From: a virus
Lineage: Duplodnaviria > Caudoviricetes
DNA: 55,459 nucleotides
IMG/VR virus record: IMGVR_UViG_3300047476_000267
Coordinates: 1-55,459 of that record
Strand: one strand, 5' to 3'
In this document: piece by piece, positions 28,756-47,599 of the stretch
Layout: every line of letters starts with the position of its first letter
Numbering within the stretch: the first letter of the stretch is position 1
Translations under genes and position numbers: made by a program
Notes under the pieces: model-generated
What the model saw: the letters and a program-made list of their open reading frames with translations, nothing else
Databases searched by the model: none
Told to the model about the DNA's origin: nothing

Positions 28756-29451
28756 ATGAGTGTGTACAAAAAACTGCAACAAGCTAGGATGTTGCTACAA
28801 AATACCAAGTTATCGAAGTCTGGCAAGAACAAGTTTGCTGGCTATGAGTACTTTGAGTTAGGCGATTTTCTTCCAGCGATTCAGAAGATCTGCAACGATG
28901 TGGGGCTGTGCGGTGTCGTGTCCTTTAATCAGGACATGGCTTACCTACAAATCAATGATGTAGAGGATGGAACATCCATTATGTTCACATCCCCAATGTC
29001 TTCTGCCTCTCTCAAGGGTTGCCATGATGTGCAGAACCTTGGTGCGGTGCAGACCTATCTGCGTAGATACCTTTGGACTAATGCCTTTGAGATCGTAGAG
29101 CACGATGCCTTGGATGCAACCATGGGCGCATCAGAGCCAGTCAAGAGGGCAGAACCAAAGCCTGAGCCAAAGCCAGTAGCCAAGCCCAAGCCTATCGTAG
29201 GTCAGGCGGGTGAGTGGCAGATCCAAGCACCAGGAAAGCCCGATGGCGATGTACAAAACTGGCTAGACCTTATCCAAATCACAGCCCATCAACTGCTCGA
29301 TCTCACCGAGAATGAGGAAGATGTCATGCTGATTTTCAAGAAGAACAAGGTGCTATTCGATACCGTCAAGGCTACCGATGCCGACTTCTTCAAAGGAATG
29401 ATGGGCAAGTTCACTGCTAAGAAAAACGAATTTACTAAGGAGGAAGCGTAA
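28756..29451 (+). CDS. ERF-family ssDNA annealing protein
   Basis: KSGKNKFAGYEYFELGDF, QNLGAVQTYLRRYL. Confidence 0.85.
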   Translation: MSVYKKLQQARMLLQNTKLSKSGKNKFAGYEYFELGDFLPAIQKICNDVGLCGVVSFNQDMAYLQINDVEDGTSIMFTSPMSSASLKGCHDVQNLGAVQTYLRRYLWTNAFEIVEHDALDATMGASEPVKRAEPKPEPKPVAKPKPIVGQAGEWQIQAPGKPDGDVQNWLDLIQITAHQLLDLTENEEDVMLIFKKNKVLFDTVKATDADFFKGMMGKFTAKKNEFTKEEA

Positions 29452-35439: not shown

Positions 35440-35611
35440 CACCCGAATGGAAGAAGAGTTCAACCAGTGGGCTATGGATAACATAGAGCCATGGCCTCAT
35501 CCCCAAAAGATTCTCCAGAATTATTGGATCGTCTGGCAAGCAGCGTGGAATCGGGCATACAATAGATCTTCAAGTGTGAGGATTGAAGATGAAGACGAAG
35601 GAAGATGTTAA
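35417..35611 (+). CDS. Hypothetical protein
   Basis: EEFNQW...WQAAW motif common in small phage proteins. Confidence 0.5.
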   Translation: MKTESNISTRMEEEFNQWAMDNIEPWPHPQKILQNYWIVWQAAWNRAYNRSSSVRIEDEDEGRC

Positions 35612-35774
35612 GAAACCCAAGGGGCCACAAGCAGAACTTACCCATGACGAGATTGCAAAAGAGCTAGGAATTACGAGGGCTGCGGTATCCATGATCGAGA
35701 AAAGCGCCTTGGCAAAGATTAAACGAGCTCTGAGAGCTAGATACAACATTCATCAATCTGATGATCTTTTATGA
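35583..35774 (+). CDS. Sigma70 region 4-like HTH protein
   Basis: LTHDEIAKELGITRAAVSMIEKSALAKIK. Confidence 0.75.
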   Translation: MKMKTKEDVKKPKGPQAELTHDEIAKELGITRAAVSMIEKSALAKIKRALRARYNIHQSDDLL

Positions 35775-36214
35775 TCTTGGAAAAAGGTTTAAATCGTAAA
35801 GAAAACTGGCAAATCCAAGAAGACATGATGAATCAGTCCAAGGCAAGGGCTGATCTAATGCAACTGTTAAATGTGGATATTGTTACCCAAGACCCTATGA
35901 GCATATGGGATTGGGAGTTCTTTCGAGGCAATCGTCTGCTGGCTATTGGGGAATACCGCAGAAGATTTAATAACTTTGGCACATTCCCAGACTTCCAGTT
36001 TAGCCAGAAGAAGTTTCAAACCATGATGGCAGAAGGTCAGCGGCATGGCATCCCAGCCTTAATGTTTGTGGAGTTTGATGATCTTTACCTTTATTTTGAA
36101 ATACAAGGCAACCCAGAAGTCAAGACCATGCGCAGAAACCACGAGGTCAGGACTGAGCCATGTGTAGTTATCCCAAATGAGCAGTTTAAGTATGTATATC
36201 ATCTAGATCTATGA
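35771..36214 (+). CDS. Hypothetical protein, possibly restriction-endonuclease fold
   Basis: D...EYRRR spacing resembles PD-(D/E)XK. Confidence 0.45.
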   Translation: MILEKGLNRKENWQIQEDMMNQSKARADLMQLLNVDIVTQDPMSIWDWEFFRGNRLLAIGEYRRRFNNFGTFPDFQFSQKKFQTMMAEGQRHGIPALMFVEFDDLYLYFEIQGNPEVKTMRRNHEVRTEPCVVIPNEQFKYVYHLDL

Positions 36215-36504
36215 CTATCTATCGAAACAAGAAGCTCTTAGAAGCTGTCAGGGTTAGCCCCTGTCAGAACTGTGGCAAAGTGGATGGAACAGTCTGCGCT
36301 GCGCACTCCAACCAGCTACGGGATGGCAAGGGCAGAGCCCTAAAAGCGCACGATTACCGCATCGCAGCATTATGTTTTCGCTGTCATTCCATGCTGGATC
36401 AGGGCTACCAGATGAGCAAGGAAGAACGGGTAGAAATGTGGGAAAGCGCCCATCGGAAGACGATTGGCTGGCTTTTTGAGAATGGCATTATTGATACAAG
36501 ATAG
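36211..36504 (+). CDS. Zn-binding HNH-like nuclease (DUF1364/DUF968-like)
   Basis: CQNCG...AAHSN...KAHD...LCFRCH. Confidence 0.7.
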   Translation: MTIYRNKKLLEAVRVSPCQNCGKVDGTVCAAHSNQLRDGKGRALKAHDYRIAALCFRCHSMLDQGYQMSKEERVEMWESAHRKTIGWLFENGIIDTR

Positions 36505-36545
36505 ACGCCTATAGACACCTATAGAGCACCATGGAACACAATATA

Positions 36546-36575
36546 TTGACGTTTTGTAGAACCATGTGCTATATT
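36546..36575 (+). promoter_or_regulatory. Sigma70-type promoter of the small RNA
   Basis: TTGACG-18 bp-TATATT with extended TGn. Confidence 0.6.
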
Positions 36576-36581
36576 TAGTGC

Positions 36582-36699
36582 ACCAGCCCACACTGGTATC
36601 GCACGATAAATCTCCTAGCAGAGACTTGTGCAATGCAAGCCCAACGGTGACACACTCACCTCAAACCCCCAGGCTCACACTCCTGGGGGTTTTTCTTTT
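36582..36699 (+). ncRNA. Candidate trans-acting antisense (anti-RBS) small RNA
   Basis: Bounded by promoter and terminator; four hairpins; AAUCUCCUAGCAG and UCACACUCCU are complementary to repeated phage RBSs. Confidence 0.65.
36663..36699 (+). terminator. Intrinsic terminator
   Basis: AAACCCCCAGG/CCTGGGGGTTT stem followed by TTCTTTT. Confidence 0.85.
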
Positions 36700-36712
36700 G
36701 TGCAAAAAATTG

Positions 36713-36741
36713 TTGCAAATTTATTTCTGTTGGTTTAATCT
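36713..36741 (+). promoter_or_regulatory. Sigma70-type promoter of the replication operon leader
   Basis: TTGCAA-17 bp-TAATCT with AT-rich upstream sequence. Confidence 0.55.
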
Positions 36742-36808
36742 AATCGTGCTAGGAGAAATATCGTGTGGATGAATGCGTAACTGCGTTCGTCTTCACAATA
36801 TTCCTCTC

Positions 36809-37000
36809 AGCTACACCGCATAGGTCGGATTCTTTAACGACAGCTATTCGGGAAGATGCTCCTACTGTGGGATAAGACTTGAAACAGGAGCAGAGATGGC
36901 GAAGCCAGAGTCTCTAGTCGAACGTCTGGCGGGTGCAGTGGCTCCAGAAAGCAACTGTTGAAGGCATCTAGGATAGGCTAGGTGCGTTCACCAAAAAGCA
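36809..37000 (+). ncRNA. Candidate multi-stem structured RNA
   Basis: Nested stems TGCTCCT/AGGAGCA, GAGA-TGGC/GCCA-TCTC, CAGT/ACTG, GCATCTAG/CTAGGTGC; no long ORF. Confidence 0.5.
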
Positions 37001-37050
37001 ACTCACCTTACTAATACTAACTACTACTACTAACTAGATAGGGGGTGGGG

Positions 37051-37203
37051 GTGTACGAGATACGAGATGAGATGGGCGAACTGATGCGGATAGTCGGGCG
37101 CCTTGAGGAAGCAAAGAGTTTAGTCGCTGTGCGTGAGGGCTGGTCGTACAAGCGGGTGAAGCAACATAAACCAGCCTATGTGTTTGAAGAAGCCCCATTT
37201 TAA
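37051..37203 (+). CDS. Hypothetical protein (50 aa, not in ORF track)
   Basis: GTG start after G-rich RBS; MYEIRDEMGELMRIV...FEEAPF. Confidence 0.55.
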   Translation: MYEIRDEMGELMRIVGRLEEAKSLVAVREGWSYKRVKQHKPAYVFEEAPF

Positions 37204-37213
37204 GGAGAATGAA

Positions 37214-37612
37214 ATGAAGTTAATTGCGGAGTTTAGTAGCATCGCTGACATGGCCAACTTTTCTGCCTTTGTCAATCAGCGTTTGGAAGAAGATGCACGA
37301 GTTCGGGAACTGAACAACCTACGAGGACAACTGGATTTAGCCAAAGAGCAACTCAATCGAGCCTATGCCCGTCTGCGTTTCAAAGATGACAAAGACAATG
37401 AGAAGACCTATGCGATCCCGCTTGATACATTGCCATTAAAAGTCCGCACCTACAACTGCTTGGTCGCTGAAGGATGCCAAACTGTTGGTGATGTCATGGC
37501 GCTTTTTAATGAAAATCAACTGCGTAAAATAACTAACTTTGGCAACGGCAGTTTTAGCAATCTAAAGCGAGTCTTTGCGGAAGAACTAAAAATAACCCTT
37601 GATCGGAAATAA
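37214..37612 (+). CDS. Protein with RNA polymerase alpha-CTD-like domain
   Basis: LDTLPLKVRTYNCL..EG..TVGDV.....QLRKITNFGNGS resembles alpha-CTD; TAAGGAG RBS. Confidence 0.75.
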   Translation: MKLIAEFSSIADMANFSAFVNQRLEEDARVRELNNLRGQLDLAKEQLNRAYARLRFKDDKDNEKTYAIPLDTLPLKVRTYNCLVAEGCQTVGDVMALFNENQLRKITNFGNGSFSNLKRVFAEELKITLDRK

Positions 37613-38469: not shown

Positions 38470-38518
38470 GGCGTAAGCCAAGCCCAAGCCAGAGGGATTC
38501 TGGTAGTTAGGAGTGTGA

Positions 38519-39997
38519 ATGGATTTAGAGTTACGAGAGCATCAAATGCACGTGGTCAATGCCTTGCGTGAGGGATTTAAGCAAGGACATCGAACCCAAC
38601 TGCTATATGCCCCAACTGGATTTGGTAAGACCGAAGTAGCCATCTACCTGATGAAGGCTACGAAAGACAACTACAAGCGTGCAGCGATGGTGCTAGACCG
38701 CATTGTTTTGGTCGATCAGACGAGCAATCGCCTGACCAAATACGGCATCAACCATGGGGTATTCCAAGCCGATCACTGGAAGTTTGACCGCACCAACAGA
38801 CTTCAAGTGTGTTCTGCCCAAACCCTAGAAAGACGAACCAACTTTCCAGAGATCGACCTCTTGATCGTGGATGAGTGCCACATTACTCGTGAGCAGACAT
38901 CTGAGTTCATCAAGAGCAACCCCAAGGTAAAGGTCATAGGACTCACTGCTACGCCGTTTACCAAAGGGTTAGGGGATTTGTATTCCAATGTGGTTTGCGG
39001 GGCTACAACCGAGGATTTGGTGGCAAACAAGTGGCTTACCCCACTGCGGGTGTATATCGCCAAAGAAATCGACATGACTGGCGTGAAAAAGGTCGCTGGC
39101 GAGTGGTCAGCCGACCAAACTACCGAGAGAGGGATGCAAATAACAGGCGATATTGTCGATGAATGGATCAAAAAGACCCATGAAGTGTTTGGCAAGCCTG
39201 TTAAAACCATTGTTTTCTGCTCAGGTGTAGCCCATGGCGCACATCTAGTCGATAAGTTTGCTCAAAAAGGCTACAACTTTGTCTCAATATCCTACAAAGA
39301 CAATGACGAATTCAAACGGGCAGCCATCGAGGACTTTGCTAAACCCGATACCGAGATCAATGGTTTGATTGCTACCGACATTCTGACCAGGGGTTTCGAT
39401 GTCTCCGATGTCCTAATCGGTGTGTCTGCCCGACCCTTTTCCAAGTCGCTATCGAGCCACATCCAACAGATGGGGCGGGTGATGCGAACCCATGAGGGTA
39501 AGGAGTTTGCCCTATGGCTAGACCATTCAGGCAACTACCTACGCTTTCGAGACGACTGGGATGAGGTTTACTCCGAGGGCGTCAAGACCCTAAACAGCAA
39601 GGTCGAGAGAGCCAAGAAAGAGCCGACTGAGAAGACCAAGAAGGAATCCAAATGCCCTGAGTGCGGATACCTATGGCCTAAGAACAGCGATACTTGCCCC
39701 GCTTGTGGTCATGTCCGCAAACGCAGAAACCTAGTCGAATCCGTGGCTGGTGAACTGGTCGAACTGGTATCAGGCAACAAGGTGAAGAAAGATGACAAGC
39801 AGATCTTCTACTCCGAACTGCTTTACTACGCCAACCAACGCAACTACAACCCGAACTGGGCGAGCCACAAATACAAGGAGAAGTTTGGGGTATGGCCTCG
39901 TGGACTAGAAGATACCCAAGTCCCCCCATCAATTAACACCATGAAGTGGATTACGCACAAACAAATTCAGTGGGCAAGAAAGAGAGATAGAGCATGA
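38519..39997 (+). CDS. Superfamily II DNA helicase with Zn ribbon
   Basis: APTGFGKT, DECH, GLTATP, QQMGRVMR, CPEC...CPAC. Confidence 0.9.
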   Translation: MDLELREHQMHVVNALREGFKQGHRTQLLYAPTGFGKTEVAIYLMKATKDNYKRAAMVLDRIVLVDQTSNRLTKYGINHGVFQADHWKFDRTNRLQVCSAQTLERRTNFPEIDLLIVDECHITREQTSEFIKSNPKVKVIGLTATPFTKGLGDLYSNVVCGATTEDLVANKWLTPLRVYIAKEIDMTGVKKVAGEWSADQTTERGMQITGDIVDEWIKKTHEVFGKPVKTIVFCSGVAHGAHLVDKFAQKGYNFVSISYKDNDEFKRAAIEDFAKPDTEINGLIATDILTRGFDVSDVLIGVSARPFSKSLSSHIQQMGRVMRTHEGKEFALWLDHSGNYLRFRDDWDEVYSEGVKTLNSKVERAKKEPTEKTKKESKCPECGYLWPKNSDTCPACGHVRKRRNLVESVAGELVELVSGNKVKKDDKQIFYSELLYYANQRNYNPNWASHKYKEKFGVWPRGLEDTQVPPSINTMKWITHKQIQWARKRDRA

Positions 39998-42882: not shown

Positions 42883-42914
42883 AGAAAAACCCCCAGTCAA
42901 ACTGCACTGGGGGT
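42883..42914 (-). terminator. Intrinsic terminator of the leftward gene block
   Basis: ACCCCCAGT/ACTGGGGGT stem with TTTTCT tail on the minus strand, between convergent genes. Confidence 0.8.
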
Positions 42915-42936
42915 ATCCATTTACTGCTAGGTAAAC

Positions 42937-43083
42937 CTATTCGGGCTTTTGGTCTTTCTTCTGCTCTAATTCCTCAACCCGCTTGATTAAAGTCTCAACT
43001 CGGTCATTCCACAACTGAGAATCCACCGACTGAGGCCATGTAATCAAGTGTTCTTTTATTAGTTCTAATACAGTTTTAGTCAT
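42937..43083 (-). CDS. Hypothetical protein (48 aa)
   Basis: Fills the gap; overlaps the upstream stop. Confidence 0.5.
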   Translation of the reverse strand: MTKTVLELIKEHLITWPQSVDSQLWNDRVETLIKRVEELEQKKDQKPE

Positions 43084-43635: not shown

Positions 43636-44269
43636 TTTCAATCTCCTCAAGTTCTTGTTTCTTGGCGATCAACTGGGCAGATAGTTCAGGATCATCTTTT
43701 TCTTTCAATGTTTCTTCCAGTTCCTCGATCTCACTAGCAAGATCATCAGCCCGATATTCTTTCATGCTGATAGAAATGCCAAACTCAGAATCAATGGATT
43801 CGGGAATGTTCTCTTGCACCCACTTCCAATCCCCATCAATCCCGTAGGTTTCTTCTGATCCATCCACATATTCACCACAGAAGGCACAACCGCCCTCGTA
43901 GTAAAGGGCATTGACCCCATAACCCTGATCCACCAACTTATCAAAAATCCCAGTAGGCGGACTCCAAGCAGTAGAAAACGAGACCCTGATTTCTTTCTCA
44001 TGGATATCAATGTAGGCTTCATCCGTTGTGATCTCCCACTTTGTTCCCCAGTTCTGAACCCGCCAGTCCCACCACGCAGATTCAGGGCTAACAGGATCAT
44101 CATTACCCTTGATACTGGGGAATGTAGGCCTTACCTTAACCTTGTTGTAATCAGGCTCAGGGTAGATAGTTCCAAAGAATTTGTTTGCTTTCCACGCATC
44201 CACAAGGGTTTGGATTTTCTTGGGATCATCATGGGTTATATACACAGTGTTATCGCACCAATTAGGCAT
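43625..44269 (-). CDS. YubB/Api92-like ferredoxin-domain protein
   Basis: MPNWCDN, WRVQNWGTKW, FSTAWSPP, YYEGGCAFCG. Confidence 0.75.
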   Translation of the reverse strand: MPNWCDNTVYITHDDPKKIQTLVDAWKANKFFGTIYPEPDYNKVKVRPTFPSIKGNDDPVSPESAWWDWRVQNWGTKWEITTDEAYIDIHEKEIRVSFSTAWSPPTGIFDKLVDQGYGVNALYYEGGCAFCGEYVDGSEETYGIDGDWKWVQENIPESIDSEFGISISMKEYRADDLASEIEELEETLKEKDDPELSAQLIAKKQELEEIENAF

Positions 44270-44426
44270 TTTCAAACTCCTTTATCAAGTCAATTTTTGT
44301 TTGTGCATCTTCTTTAGTAGTAAACATAAGGTTATGCCCAGTATGATCCACATACTCGGTATAACCATCTTCATCTTGAATAATCCAATAGTCTTGGACT
44401 AATTCCACTGGTTTCCAATTAGGCAT
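44262..44426 (-). CDS. Hypothetical protein (54 aa, not in ORF track)
   Basis: GAGGAGTGTGA RBS; fills the gap exactly. Confidence 0.55.
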   Translation of the reverse strand: MPNWKPVELVQDYWIIQDEDGYTEYVDHTGHNLMFTTKEDAQTKIDLIKEFENA

Positions 44427-44703
44427 CTTCACACTCCTCTTGACTAACTATTACTTCAACATATTCACCCTCGTATGGCACTTCGGTAATCATGTAGTAA
44501 ATGCGATTCACTAAGTGATACCCATTGACAAGGTAAGTCCCACCATCCCCATCAACATAAGTCCACACCCTCTTGGGATCGCAATCCGCAACCCCCAATA
44601 CATAGCCCAGTTCGATCCCATAGGTCTCGAAATAGTCCACACCATCCTCGTTTAGATGGTTTGGAATGGGCTTGTATTTGGCACTCCAAGAATCAAAGTC
44701 CAT
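44419..44703 (-). CDS. Hypothetical protein
   Basis: FETYG, VWTYVDG, GYHLVNRIYY motifs; start trimmed. Confidence 0.6.
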   Translation of the reverse strand: MDFDSWSAKYKPIPNHLNEDGVDYFETYGIELGYVLGVADCDPKRVWTYVDGDGGTYLVNGYHLVNRIYYMITEVPYEGEYVEVIVSQEECEDA

Positions 44704-44707
44704 AGGA

Positions 44708-45187
44708 TCACCAACTGGCTTGATAGTAAAACTCATACTGATCTTCGGGCAGTGATTCCAGAGCATTGGTAATGCCCTCAACAGTCCTTTTCAGATCATC
44801 CCAATACCATTCATCTTTTTCGTATGTTCCGAAAAATGGGCCTTGCATTGGCTCTAAATCCTCATCCCTTTCGGCATCAGGATTCTCAAGAATGTCTTTG
44901 CACAAGTCCCGCAACTCCACCAGTTTCTCTCTCGGCACATAGGATTGCTGACACTCATCCACCCCGCCCTGACAGTTTTCCACGAACCACCCATGAATAG
45001 CGTTTGCTTTTCGCCAATACATAGCATCCACCGATACTTCCTTGACCACAAGGCTCGATCCCGCAAAGCGTTTTTCAGGATTACCATCAACCCCAATCAT
45101 TTCATTGACCTTTTGAGATATTTCCTTGTCCTCGTCTCGGTGAGACGAAAGATATCTCTTGGCAGTTAAATACATATCTAATCCCAT
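44708..45187 (-). CDS. Hypothetical protein (MGLDMYL family)
   Basis: YWRKANAIHGWF, FFG..E.DEWY, YYQASW. Confidence 0.7.
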   Translation of the reverse strand: MGLDMYLTAKRYLSSHRDEDKEISQKVNEMIGVDGNPEKRFAGSSLVVKEVSVDAMYWRKANAIHGWFVENCQGGVDECQQSYVPREKLVELRDLCKDILENPDAERDEDLEPMQGPFFGTYEKDEWYWDDLKRTVEGITNALESLPEDQYEFYYQASW

Positions 45188-45213
45188 AACATTCTCCTAG
45201 CAGTTAAAAAGTT

Positions 45214-45270
45214 ATTGATTGCCGAATGACAATCCTTATGCCCTCACACAAGGGCATAAAGGTATCACTC
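45214..45270 (-). ncRNA. Intergenic two-hairpin RNA motif, copy A
   Basis: GAGUGAUACCU-hairpin-GGAUUGUC/GGCAAUC; homologous to 47104-47163. Confidence 0.55.
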
Positions 45271-45520
45271 AGGGCATCACTGGCAAACAGGATTGATTAT
45301 CATCACTGGTAAACAATGCACCCCCACCATTCCCCTCATCATCACGACTGGGGAAGAACCAAAGACCATCTTCGGTTTGAAAAGCGATTGACCTTTCATA
45401 CCAACCCATCTGATCCCTTTCTTCCTTTGTCATGTATCGCACATCAACGATCCGTTTATTGAGCAACAGTTTCTTGGCAACCACATTCCAATACTTGTCG
45501 TAATCTTTAATTTCTTCCAT
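45269..45520 (-). CDS. Hypothetical protein
   Basis: PSRDDEGNGGGALF motif; GGGGAG RBS. Confidence 0.65.
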   Translation of the reverse strand: MEEIKDYDKYWNVVAKKLLLNKRIVDVRYMTKEERDQMGWYERSIAFQTEDGLWFFPSRDDEGNGGGALFTSDDNQSCLPVMP

Positions 45521-45529
45521 CACACTCCC

Positions 45530-46095: not shown

Positions 46096-46115
46096 TTCTA
46101 TCTCCTAGCAGTTTT

Positions 46116-47084: not shown

Positions 47085-47103
47085 TTTAATCTCCTAGCAG
47101 TTA

Positions 47104-47547: not shown

Positions 47548-47599
47548 TTCTATCTCCTAGCAGTTTGGTAGTCGAATTAGGTGTTTAGCACCTACCGAC

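Follow-up and report, generated by a model that had tools for sequence, protein, structure and literature searches.

Base-pairing RNAs with loops directed against ribosome-binding sites are of a known kind, and several described systems can be compared with the small RNA analysed here, whose family is absent from Rfam. The c4 antisense RNA of phages P1 and P7 is a trans-acting phage RNA whose loops pair with short sites over the ribosome-binding site of the phage's own gene. The small RNA resembles c4 in that a target-like site lies just downstream of its gene (36748); however, c4 is processed from an operon leader, whereas the small RNA has its own predicted promoter and terminator and many putative targets on both strands. 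In Staphylococcus aureus, RNAIII and RsaE-type RNAs carry C-rich (UCCC) loops, including that of the terminator hairpin, that act as anti-Shine-Dalgarno sequences and repress several mRNAs. These loops resemble the UCCCCUU loops of three relatives of the present phage (G006, G007 and G021), but RNAIII and RsaE-type RNAs belong to Gram-positive hosts, and the CACACU motif of the present RNA would pair with the spacer between the Shine-Dalgarno (SD) sequence and the AUG, rather than with the SD sequence. Phage T4 silences many early genes post-transcriptionally via their ribosome-binding sites by means of RegA and RegB, a repressor and an endoribonuclease; the function proposed here for the small RNA is alike, but RegA and RegB are proteins and share no homology with it. 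Known phage small RNAs mostly have host-gene targets or are cis-antisense.

A 2025 review names VpdS, PreS, DicF and Esr41 as phage-related small RNAs (PMC12197685). For a terminator loop that kisses a start region there is a precedent in OxyS: OxyS pairs with fhlA through two loops, one of them the terminator loop, which binds at the translation-initiation region (PMC11979758). OxyS differs in being a host stress RNA with both loops on one mRNA, whereas the RNA described here is phage-encoded and its loops are predicted to address different phage genes. The partly accessible sources returned by a literature search described no phage RNA that silences its own early-gene set via shared ribosome-binding-site tags, and none with lineage-varying loops that track the start tags of its own early genes.

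The stretch of DNA analysed (the window) is a viral contig of 55,459 bp with a CheckV completeness of 88%. The nearest relatives of its portal protein, at ~40–45% identity, are found in HTVC023P-type pelagiphages, Planktothrix phage Pag-Yong1 and similar ~60-kb phages. The small RNA locus lies within a 673-bp gap. On one side of the gap is an HNH endonuclease gene (36211–36504), on the other a rightward operon with genes for an RNA polymerase alpha-CTD-like protein, a ParB-like protein and a helicase. A 144-aa protein (37178–37612, +) with an RNA polymerase alpha-subunit C-terminal domain (PF03118, E 2.9e-12) is encoded directly 3' of the small RNA and of a second RNA in the same gap; together with a 61-aa Sigma70 region-4-like protein (35589–35774), it suggests phage modifiers of the host RNA polymerase. 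Elsewhere in the window, the product of a 3748-aa ORF is no RNA polymerase; it is a polyvalent protein in which LPD38 occurs together with an SNF2/Strawberry-notch helicase domain. A blastn search of deposited phage genomes with 36400–37300 gave no matches, and the sequencing-run contigs that hold the locus come from freshwater metagenomes. Of the runs labelled as RNA, three (X20, X21 and X23) probably consist of DNA, and the true RNA run, X22, covers flanking coding parts only.

The small RNA gene is preceded by a predicted sigma-70-type promoter (36546–36575, +; TTGACG, an 18-nt spacer and TG-n-TATATT), which matches the consensus at 10 of 12 positions, with a TG before the −10 element; both hexamers are kept in relatives, with a variable spacer. 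The predicted transcript of ~115 nt (36582–36699, +), the ends of which were deduced from the sequence, is predicted to fold into four hairpins, all on the + strand: SL1 (36582–36597) with loop CCCACA, SL2 (36601–36631) with loop CUCCUAGCAG, SL3 (36646–36660) with the arrangement GGUGA-CACAC-UCACC, and an intrinsic terminator with a U run (36663–36692), which has loop CUCACACU and lies ~115 nt after the promoter. A linker with GCAAGCCC joins SL2 to SL3, and the segment 36646–36684 comprises SL3 and the terminator. The fold has an energy of −40.6 kcal/mol and a z-score of −4.69, and none of 200 shuffles was as good. Among 12 distinct homologs, 97.3% of the alignment cells are paired and 17 of 32 base pairs have changed on both sides, in an alignment fitted to a covariance model, which favours the structure; none of 500 shuffles scored as high, and slid registers were 35–49% paired. 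The covariance model was derived from seven close homologs and then served to recover more distant ones. RNAalifold recovered the terminator alone from a MAFFT alignment, and the model-guided alignment was used in its place.

The locus was followed in relatives with the ParB-like protein as a query, which gave 78 related viral loci. A 20-base stretch over the terminator is unchanged in 11 other viral contigs, with identical loop and stem and with intergenic DNA of 80–85% identity; across the relatives, the whole intergenic region is 72–85% identical. Kept across the homologs are the promoter hexamers, the core CCTAGCAG (with TAGCAG in every one), GCAAGCC and the terminator. Two pattern scans gave ~25 more variants, and the family has roughly 35 members; the loose scan returned mostly chance matches, as ~10 of its 119 new loci were true homologs by nhmmer. 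Two ORFs across the small RNA (36566–36772, +, and 36370–36633, −) are not regarded as genes, since the reading frame is not preserved where the homologs differ by indels. With Rfam 15, at gathering thresholds over the whole window and at E ≤ 1 for 36400–37300, no family was found for the small RNA and RF02932 was the sole match; the C4 antisense RNA model (P1 c4, P4 CI type) had no match at E ≤ 1 in 36400–37300. These comparisons indicate that the predicted small RNA is real, conserved and structured, and that it is a member of a previously uncatalogued family in freshwater phage contigs of roughly 55–65 kb. As in trans-encoded base-pairing small RNAs, a promoter and an intrinsic terminator of its own are present and conserved in relatives, as judged by consensus match only, and the conserved structure leaves the seeds unpaired, the second of them at 7 of its 10 bases.

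The first seed is the SL2 loop (UCUCCUAGCAG, 36611–36621, +), which is complementary to CTGCTAGG at four leftward ribosome-binding sites. Eleven of the 12 aligned homologs share its sequence CCUAGCAG unchanged, the exception being L020 with UUUAGCAG; UAGCAG is invariant. The four CUGCUAGG ribosome-binding sites of leftward genes that form its putative targets (45196–45203, 46104–46111, 47093–47100 and 47556–47563, all −) are interleaved with the two leftward sites of the second seed described below. Copies of CCTAGCAG/CTGCTAGG in the window number seven, against 1.73 expected; four are the leftward ribosome-binding sites, one is the small RNA itself and one is found in a small hairpin where the leftward operon ends. 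In a scan that took accessibility into account, interactions of the SL2 seed rank at the top (−12.4 to −8.5 kcal/mol), and they are the best predicted interactions in five of six genomes. CTGCTAGG is enriched in start regions in nine of the 12 genomes tested (3–5 sites against 0.14–0.21 expected), with a single start-region site apiece in G006, G007 and G016. Based on this enrichment and the top-ranked interactions, the small RNA is very probably aimed at start regions of early genes of the phage itself, and an anti-ribosome-binding-site role on these genes via SL2 is well supported by the sequence comparisons.

The hairpin with the first-seed copy of the leftward operon (42889–42945, −; GGUUUAC-CUAGCA-GUAAAUGG) is conserved in relatives and immediately precedes a strong terminator that is probably bidirectional. 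The hairpin could be a second RNA derived from the 3'UTR, or it could pair with ribosome-binding sites of the operon to which it belongs.

The position of the small RNA gene, directly upstream of the alpha-CTD-like/ParB-like/helicase operon and with a strong terminator at its end, would also suit a transcript that serves the rightward replication operon as a terminated leader or attenuator, does not act in trans and has loops without targets; lambda 6S RNA, which lies upstream of tR', would be comparable. Such a cis-acting leader is very improbable, because the terminator is followed by a conserved block with promoter-like hexamers, read by eye and absent from the promoter scan list, and because nearly every genome examined has, on the opposite strand and at ribosome-binding sites far from the RNA gene, multiple exact 8–11-nt complements of the universal loop, which a cis leader would not need.

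The first-pass annotation proposed a second seed in the terminator loop, addressed to the helicase and two early genes, and a match of another loop to the start of the ERF gene. The second seed consists of the loop CUCACACU (36674–36681) and the first stem bases CCU (36674–36684, +). Within it, TCACACTCCT (36675–36684, +) has an exact complement, AGGAGTGTGA, directly before the helicase start codon (38509–38518, +) and at 44429–44438 (−), and a shorter complement, GGAGTGTGA, at 45520–45528 (−) overlaps the ATG of an 83-aa ORF. In SL3, ACACACTCA (36650–36658) complements TGAGTGTGT at 28757–28765, across the ERF start, and the description of the other loops as CACA-rich (CCCACA, CACAC) also holds. 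These complementarities are real and are more than chance, although they differ in statistical weight from one motif to the next. Exact copies of GGAGTGTGA in the window number four, one of them the RNA gene itself, against 0.47 expected; none of 100 shuffles reached four, the largest count being three. The 10-mer with at most one mismatch is not enriched in the window (6 against 3.6 expected; 16 of 100 shuffles reached 6), and TGAGTGTGT taken by itself does not exceed chance (2 copies, one of them the RNA gene, against 0.6; 13 of 100 shuffles reached 2).

The hexamer AGTGTG is common to all second-seed sites and complements the CACACU of three loops. It occurs in 5 of 81 start regions (−25 to +12, from crude gene calls of an in-house script) against 0.83 expected, a count reached in 4 of 3000 composition-preserving shuffles; five of the six mRNA-sense copies in the window lie in start regions. 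GTGTGA and AGTGTG, both complementary to the small RNA, are among the most enriched start-region hexamers that are not SD sequences. The reversed motif is itself complementary to the loop and therefore not a neutral control. This enrichment, in a motif that is no SD sequence, has to be set against a rival reading, in which the hairpin is a plain terminator, the RNA acts through SL2 alone, and the matches arise from the SD-like CUCCU stem, coding constraint on two of the sites and shared ancestry of close relatives. That reading would be helped by the lack of enrichment of the one-mismatch 10-mer and is hindered by the AGTGTG count.

The individual sites differ in how they fare among relatives. 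A fifth site, which the earlier annotation did not contain, was found in the start region of the 61-aa Sigma70 region-4-like gene, where AGUGUGAG (35573–35580, +) complements all 8 nt of the terminator loop; the domain assignment of this protein (PF04545) scores 36 bits against a cut-off of 24.1. The sequence AGTGTGAGG before this gene is kept in nine of nine cases (the close group and the G011/G012 relatives with the gene) while its flanks vary; the more distant sigma-region-4 homolog of G013 is without it. This conserved island is non-coding, which a plain terminator with matches due to coding constraint would leave unexplained.

The helicase ribosome-binding site AGGAGUGUGA (38509–38518, +) contains the 10-nt seed complement directly before the ATG at 38519. 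It is found in none of seven relatives with the identical terminator loop, which have AGGAGTATTT, AGGAGTTTTC and similar sequences instead, and in two of 20 genomes, namely the window phage and G013; another lineage has AGGAGTGTGT at this position. Since the site is absent from the same-loop relatives, the proposed link between replication and early-gene control does not emerge as a conserved one and is not a family property; the lack of conservation of the site is a point in favour of the plain-terminator reading. The helicase match would be a private acquisition of the window phage, regulated only if the seed works at all, and of the whole proposal, a second seed that connects the helicase with early-gene control is the least secure element. 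Just 5' of the helicase ribosome-binding site, many relatives share a hairpin (38478–38505, +) with a GGGA(A)U-type loop and covarying stems; it is preceded by AGCCCAAGCC, of which the window has 11 copies with at most one mismatch against 3.8 expected.

Every relative that holds the region and shares the terminator loop also has the two leftward early-gene sites. At the first, AGGAGUGUGA (44429–44438, −) lies two bases before the ATG of a 54-aa ORF (44262–44426) and also encodes the C-terminus EECEDA of the upstream ORF. The 54-aa gene has a homolog in none of five close relatives searched; in the same-loop relatives, the site is kept behind a GAGGAGTGTGAAGATG cassette, where it belongs to one or two small leftward genes. 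This cassette also encodes the conserved C-terminus EECED, so that coding constraint, as invoked with a plain terminator, is relevant here. The ORF that ends in EECEDA (44419–44781, −) overlaps a 159-aa gene (44708–45187, −), and its homolog in G001 and G002 falls into two separately aligned parts, suggestive of a split gene or a frameshift. At the second site, the 9-nt complement GGAGUGUGA (45520–45528, −) overlaps the ATG of the 83-aa ORF (45269–45520); the corresponding sequence in relatives is GGAGAGUGUGAUG, with 8 nt kept, in all seven same-loop relatives that carry the gene.

The ERF site UGAGUGUGU (28757–28765, +) spans the start codon and codons M-S-V, and its complement in the small RNA is the SL3 loop with its 3' arm (ACACACUCA, 36650–36658, +). 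The ERF start reads ATGAGTGTGTA (AGTGTGT) in all seven genomes with an SL3 of the form GGUGA-(A)CACAC-UCACC and in none of the five genomes with another SL3, which differ by synonymous or near-synonymous codons. G018, with an ERF protein 71.5% identical, has AGTGTGT, while G016, at 73.7%, is without it. The site codes for MSV, which again leaves room for coding constraint under the plain-terminator reading. In G001 (L081), the 10-mer GAGTGTGTAT occurs twice in tandem over the ERF ribosome-binding site and start, giving two sites complementary to SL3.

The loop-to-target assignments are thus SL2 with the CUGCUAGG sites, the terminator loop with the GGAGUGUGA and AGUGUGAG sites, and SL3 with the ERF start. 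The earlier picture of a multi-seed RNA in which different loops address different gene sets and link replication to early-gene control is partly supported: the complementarities of SL2, the terminator loop and SL3 stand, and the replication link is not supported.

Comparison between lineages provides further evidence on both sides. The same-loop relatives G001 and G002 have AGTGTG in 4 of 91 and 4 of 96 start regions, with ~1 expected in each, whereas G006, G007 and G008, without a CACACU loop, have it in 0 of 124, 0 of 113 and 0 of 114 start regions (0 of 351), a difference that counts against a plain terminator. The same-loop genomes are close relatives, so that their agreement amounts to few independent events. 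The invariance of the loop in 11 contigs likewise speaks against a plain terminator. Beyond these 11 identical contigs, the loop CUCACACU was seen in no other family member. Most have A-rich terminator loops (CUAAAAAA), and in three genomes that carry such a loop (G017, G021 and G023) its complement occurs in no start region, as would be expected of a plain terminator; therefore, terminator-loop pairing is not a family trait, and it would be an innovation of the window lineage. G016 and G017 have CCCACACU in SL1, yet AGTGTG is present in 0 of 120 and 0 of 113 of their start regions. Thus, the motif alone is not predictive of targets, and SL1 probably does something else.

Other lineages show a different loop and a different start-region motif. 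In G006, G007 and G021, the loops of SL1 and SL3 read UCCCCUU or UCCCCC (loci L100–L106 and L298–L299), and start regions with AAGGGG are enriched (12 of 126, 7 of 114 and 4 of 64, respectively). In up to 12 start regions per genome, nearly all of them of leftward genes, AAGGGG(A) serves as the Shine-Dalgarno sequence, and for G006 and G007 the top-ranking predictions are those for AAGGGG sites. A switch of loop and target together is seen in the distant G007, where the ortholog of the 54-aa protein (54% identity) has the start UGAAGGGGAU, a perfect 10-nt complement of the G007 SL3 loop AUCCCCUUCA and the sole match of at least 9 nt among 113 G007 start regions. In the upstream ORF that overlaps the site, the switch entails non-synonymous changes (EECEDA to EGDEDA), which counts against a plain terminator.

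Pairing energies are less favourable to the second seed, which the calculations suggest is energetically weak. As CUCACACU forms the terminator loop, the loop accounts for seven of the ten bases of the seed, and the other three (CCU) belong to the G+C-rich stem. Opening the seed costs 7.9 kcal/mol for 10 nt and 6.5 kcal/mol for 9 nt, against duplex energies of −15.8 and −14.2 kcal/mol, and pairing of the loop only yields −8.0 kcal/mol. The best net values were obtained with loop-only pairing, −5.9 kcal/mol for the helicase and the 54-aa gene and −8.2 kcal/mol for the sigma-region-4-like gene, the latter being the best match outside the first seed. A value of −5.9 kcal/mol marks the 1% tail of 400 intragenic control windows, which the helicase and the 54-aa gene only reach; the 83-aa gene has no rank through the terminator loop in the accessibility-aware scan. 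When RNAs were swapped between genomes, with the first seed masked and a threshold of −5.5 kcal/mol or lower, cognate RNAs matched no more start regions than foreign ones (for the window start regions, 5 with its own RNA and 6 with that of G008), whereas a swap with exact 9-mers gave a modest cognate advantage (2–7 against 0–2). The non-discriminating energy test and the net energies at the tail of the controls favour the plain-terminator reading; weighed together with the start-region enrichment, the AGTGTGAGG island, the G007 switch and the invariant loop, that reading is possible but, on balance, not the one we expect to hold.

The second RNA in the gap is a Betaproteobacteria-1 RNA (RF02932; 36814–36934, +), which matches the model over positions 1–120 of 120 with 86.8 bits against a gathering threshold of 49.4 and lies 130 nt downstream of the small RNA in the same intergenic region. 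The block after the terminator (36700–37010, +) is conserved and contains the promoter-like hexamers TTGTTGCAAATTTATTTCTGTTGGTTTAATCT, followed by GCUAGGAG (36748–36755, +), a site in the RF02932 leader that resembles a first-seed target. Conservation around the RF02932 element runs ~75 nt past the Rfam model, to ~37010. A linkage between the two RNAs was considered and rejected: none of 40 bacterial loci that match a pattern drawn from the RF02932 consensus, without confirmation by the Rfam model, has a homolog of the small RNA beside it, and the two are therefore separate. These pattern loci (L115–L154) are mostly from Burkholderiales (Variovorax, Xenophilus, Paraburkholderia and Comamonas), with some from Hyphomicrobium, which hints at the host range of the phage group. 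The host of the window phage is probably a betaproteobacterium from fresh water.

The neighbourhood of the second RNA offers another explanation for the three CACACU loops, namely that they bind a protein or pair with the neighbouring RNA and are not mRNA seeds. In the neighbouring RNA, GCUAGGAG in the leader (36748) is followed by GUGUGG (36763), and the Betaproteobacteria-1 part has a CUGUGGGA loop. Pairing of this sort would resemble that of the phage P1 c4 RNA, in which two loops pair with sites in its own operon. The repetition of the motif in three loops, the presence of a UGUG(G/A)A element after the GCUAGGAG site in most close relatives, and the wide occurrence of the SL1 loop CCCACA in family members without AGUGUG start regions are all in keeping with this explanation. 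However, the complementarities with the neighbouring RNA are only 5–6 nt long and are lost in L010 and L011, the small RNA adjoins none of the 40 bacterial pattern loci, and no protein partner can be named. We regard a protein-bound or neighbour-paired role for these loops as improbable.

From the sequence we infer expression of the small RNA, its pairing in the cell and the repression of its targets, along the following lines. Host RNA polymerase would transcribe the ~115-nt RNA from the sigma-70-type promoter, and the RNA would act as a base-pairing repressor of translation initiation on the phage's own early genes. The main seed, the SL2 loop CCUAGCAG, would cover the CUGCUAGG(AG) ribosome-binding sites. 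The terminator loop CUCACACU(CC) may kiss start regions that contain AGUGUGA(G), those of the sigma-region-4-like gene, of small leftward genes behind the GAGGAGUGUGAAGAUG cassette and of the 83-aa gene, and that of the helicase in the window phage only; SL3 (ACACACUCA) may pair across the ERF start codon. Seven to eight paired loop bases inside the ribosome footprint would hinder 30S binding, and two to three more paired bases would require the terminator stem to be opened. On the sequence evidence, we put the chance that the terminator loop and SL3 serve as auxiliary seeds in the window lineage at about even.

A broader and more tentative view, which we think somewhat unlikely to be right in full, is that the small RNA is an evolvable master switch, a counterpart of T4 RegA made of RNA, whose loops are rewritten in each lineage to match the 'address tags' of the early genes, with the terminator loop newly recruited here. 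The tags would be CUGCUAGG everywhere, AAGGGGA in some lineages and AGUGUG in the window lineage. If this were true, a sigma-region-4-like modifier of RNA polymerase, ERF and, in the window phage, the helicase would be under one RNA. Should the pairing be real, the family would provide a natural series for the study of seed–target co-evolution, in which one scaffold carries lineage-specific loops and the start regions change along with them, and it would give access to the temporal programme of a freshwater phage group that is abundant but uncultured.
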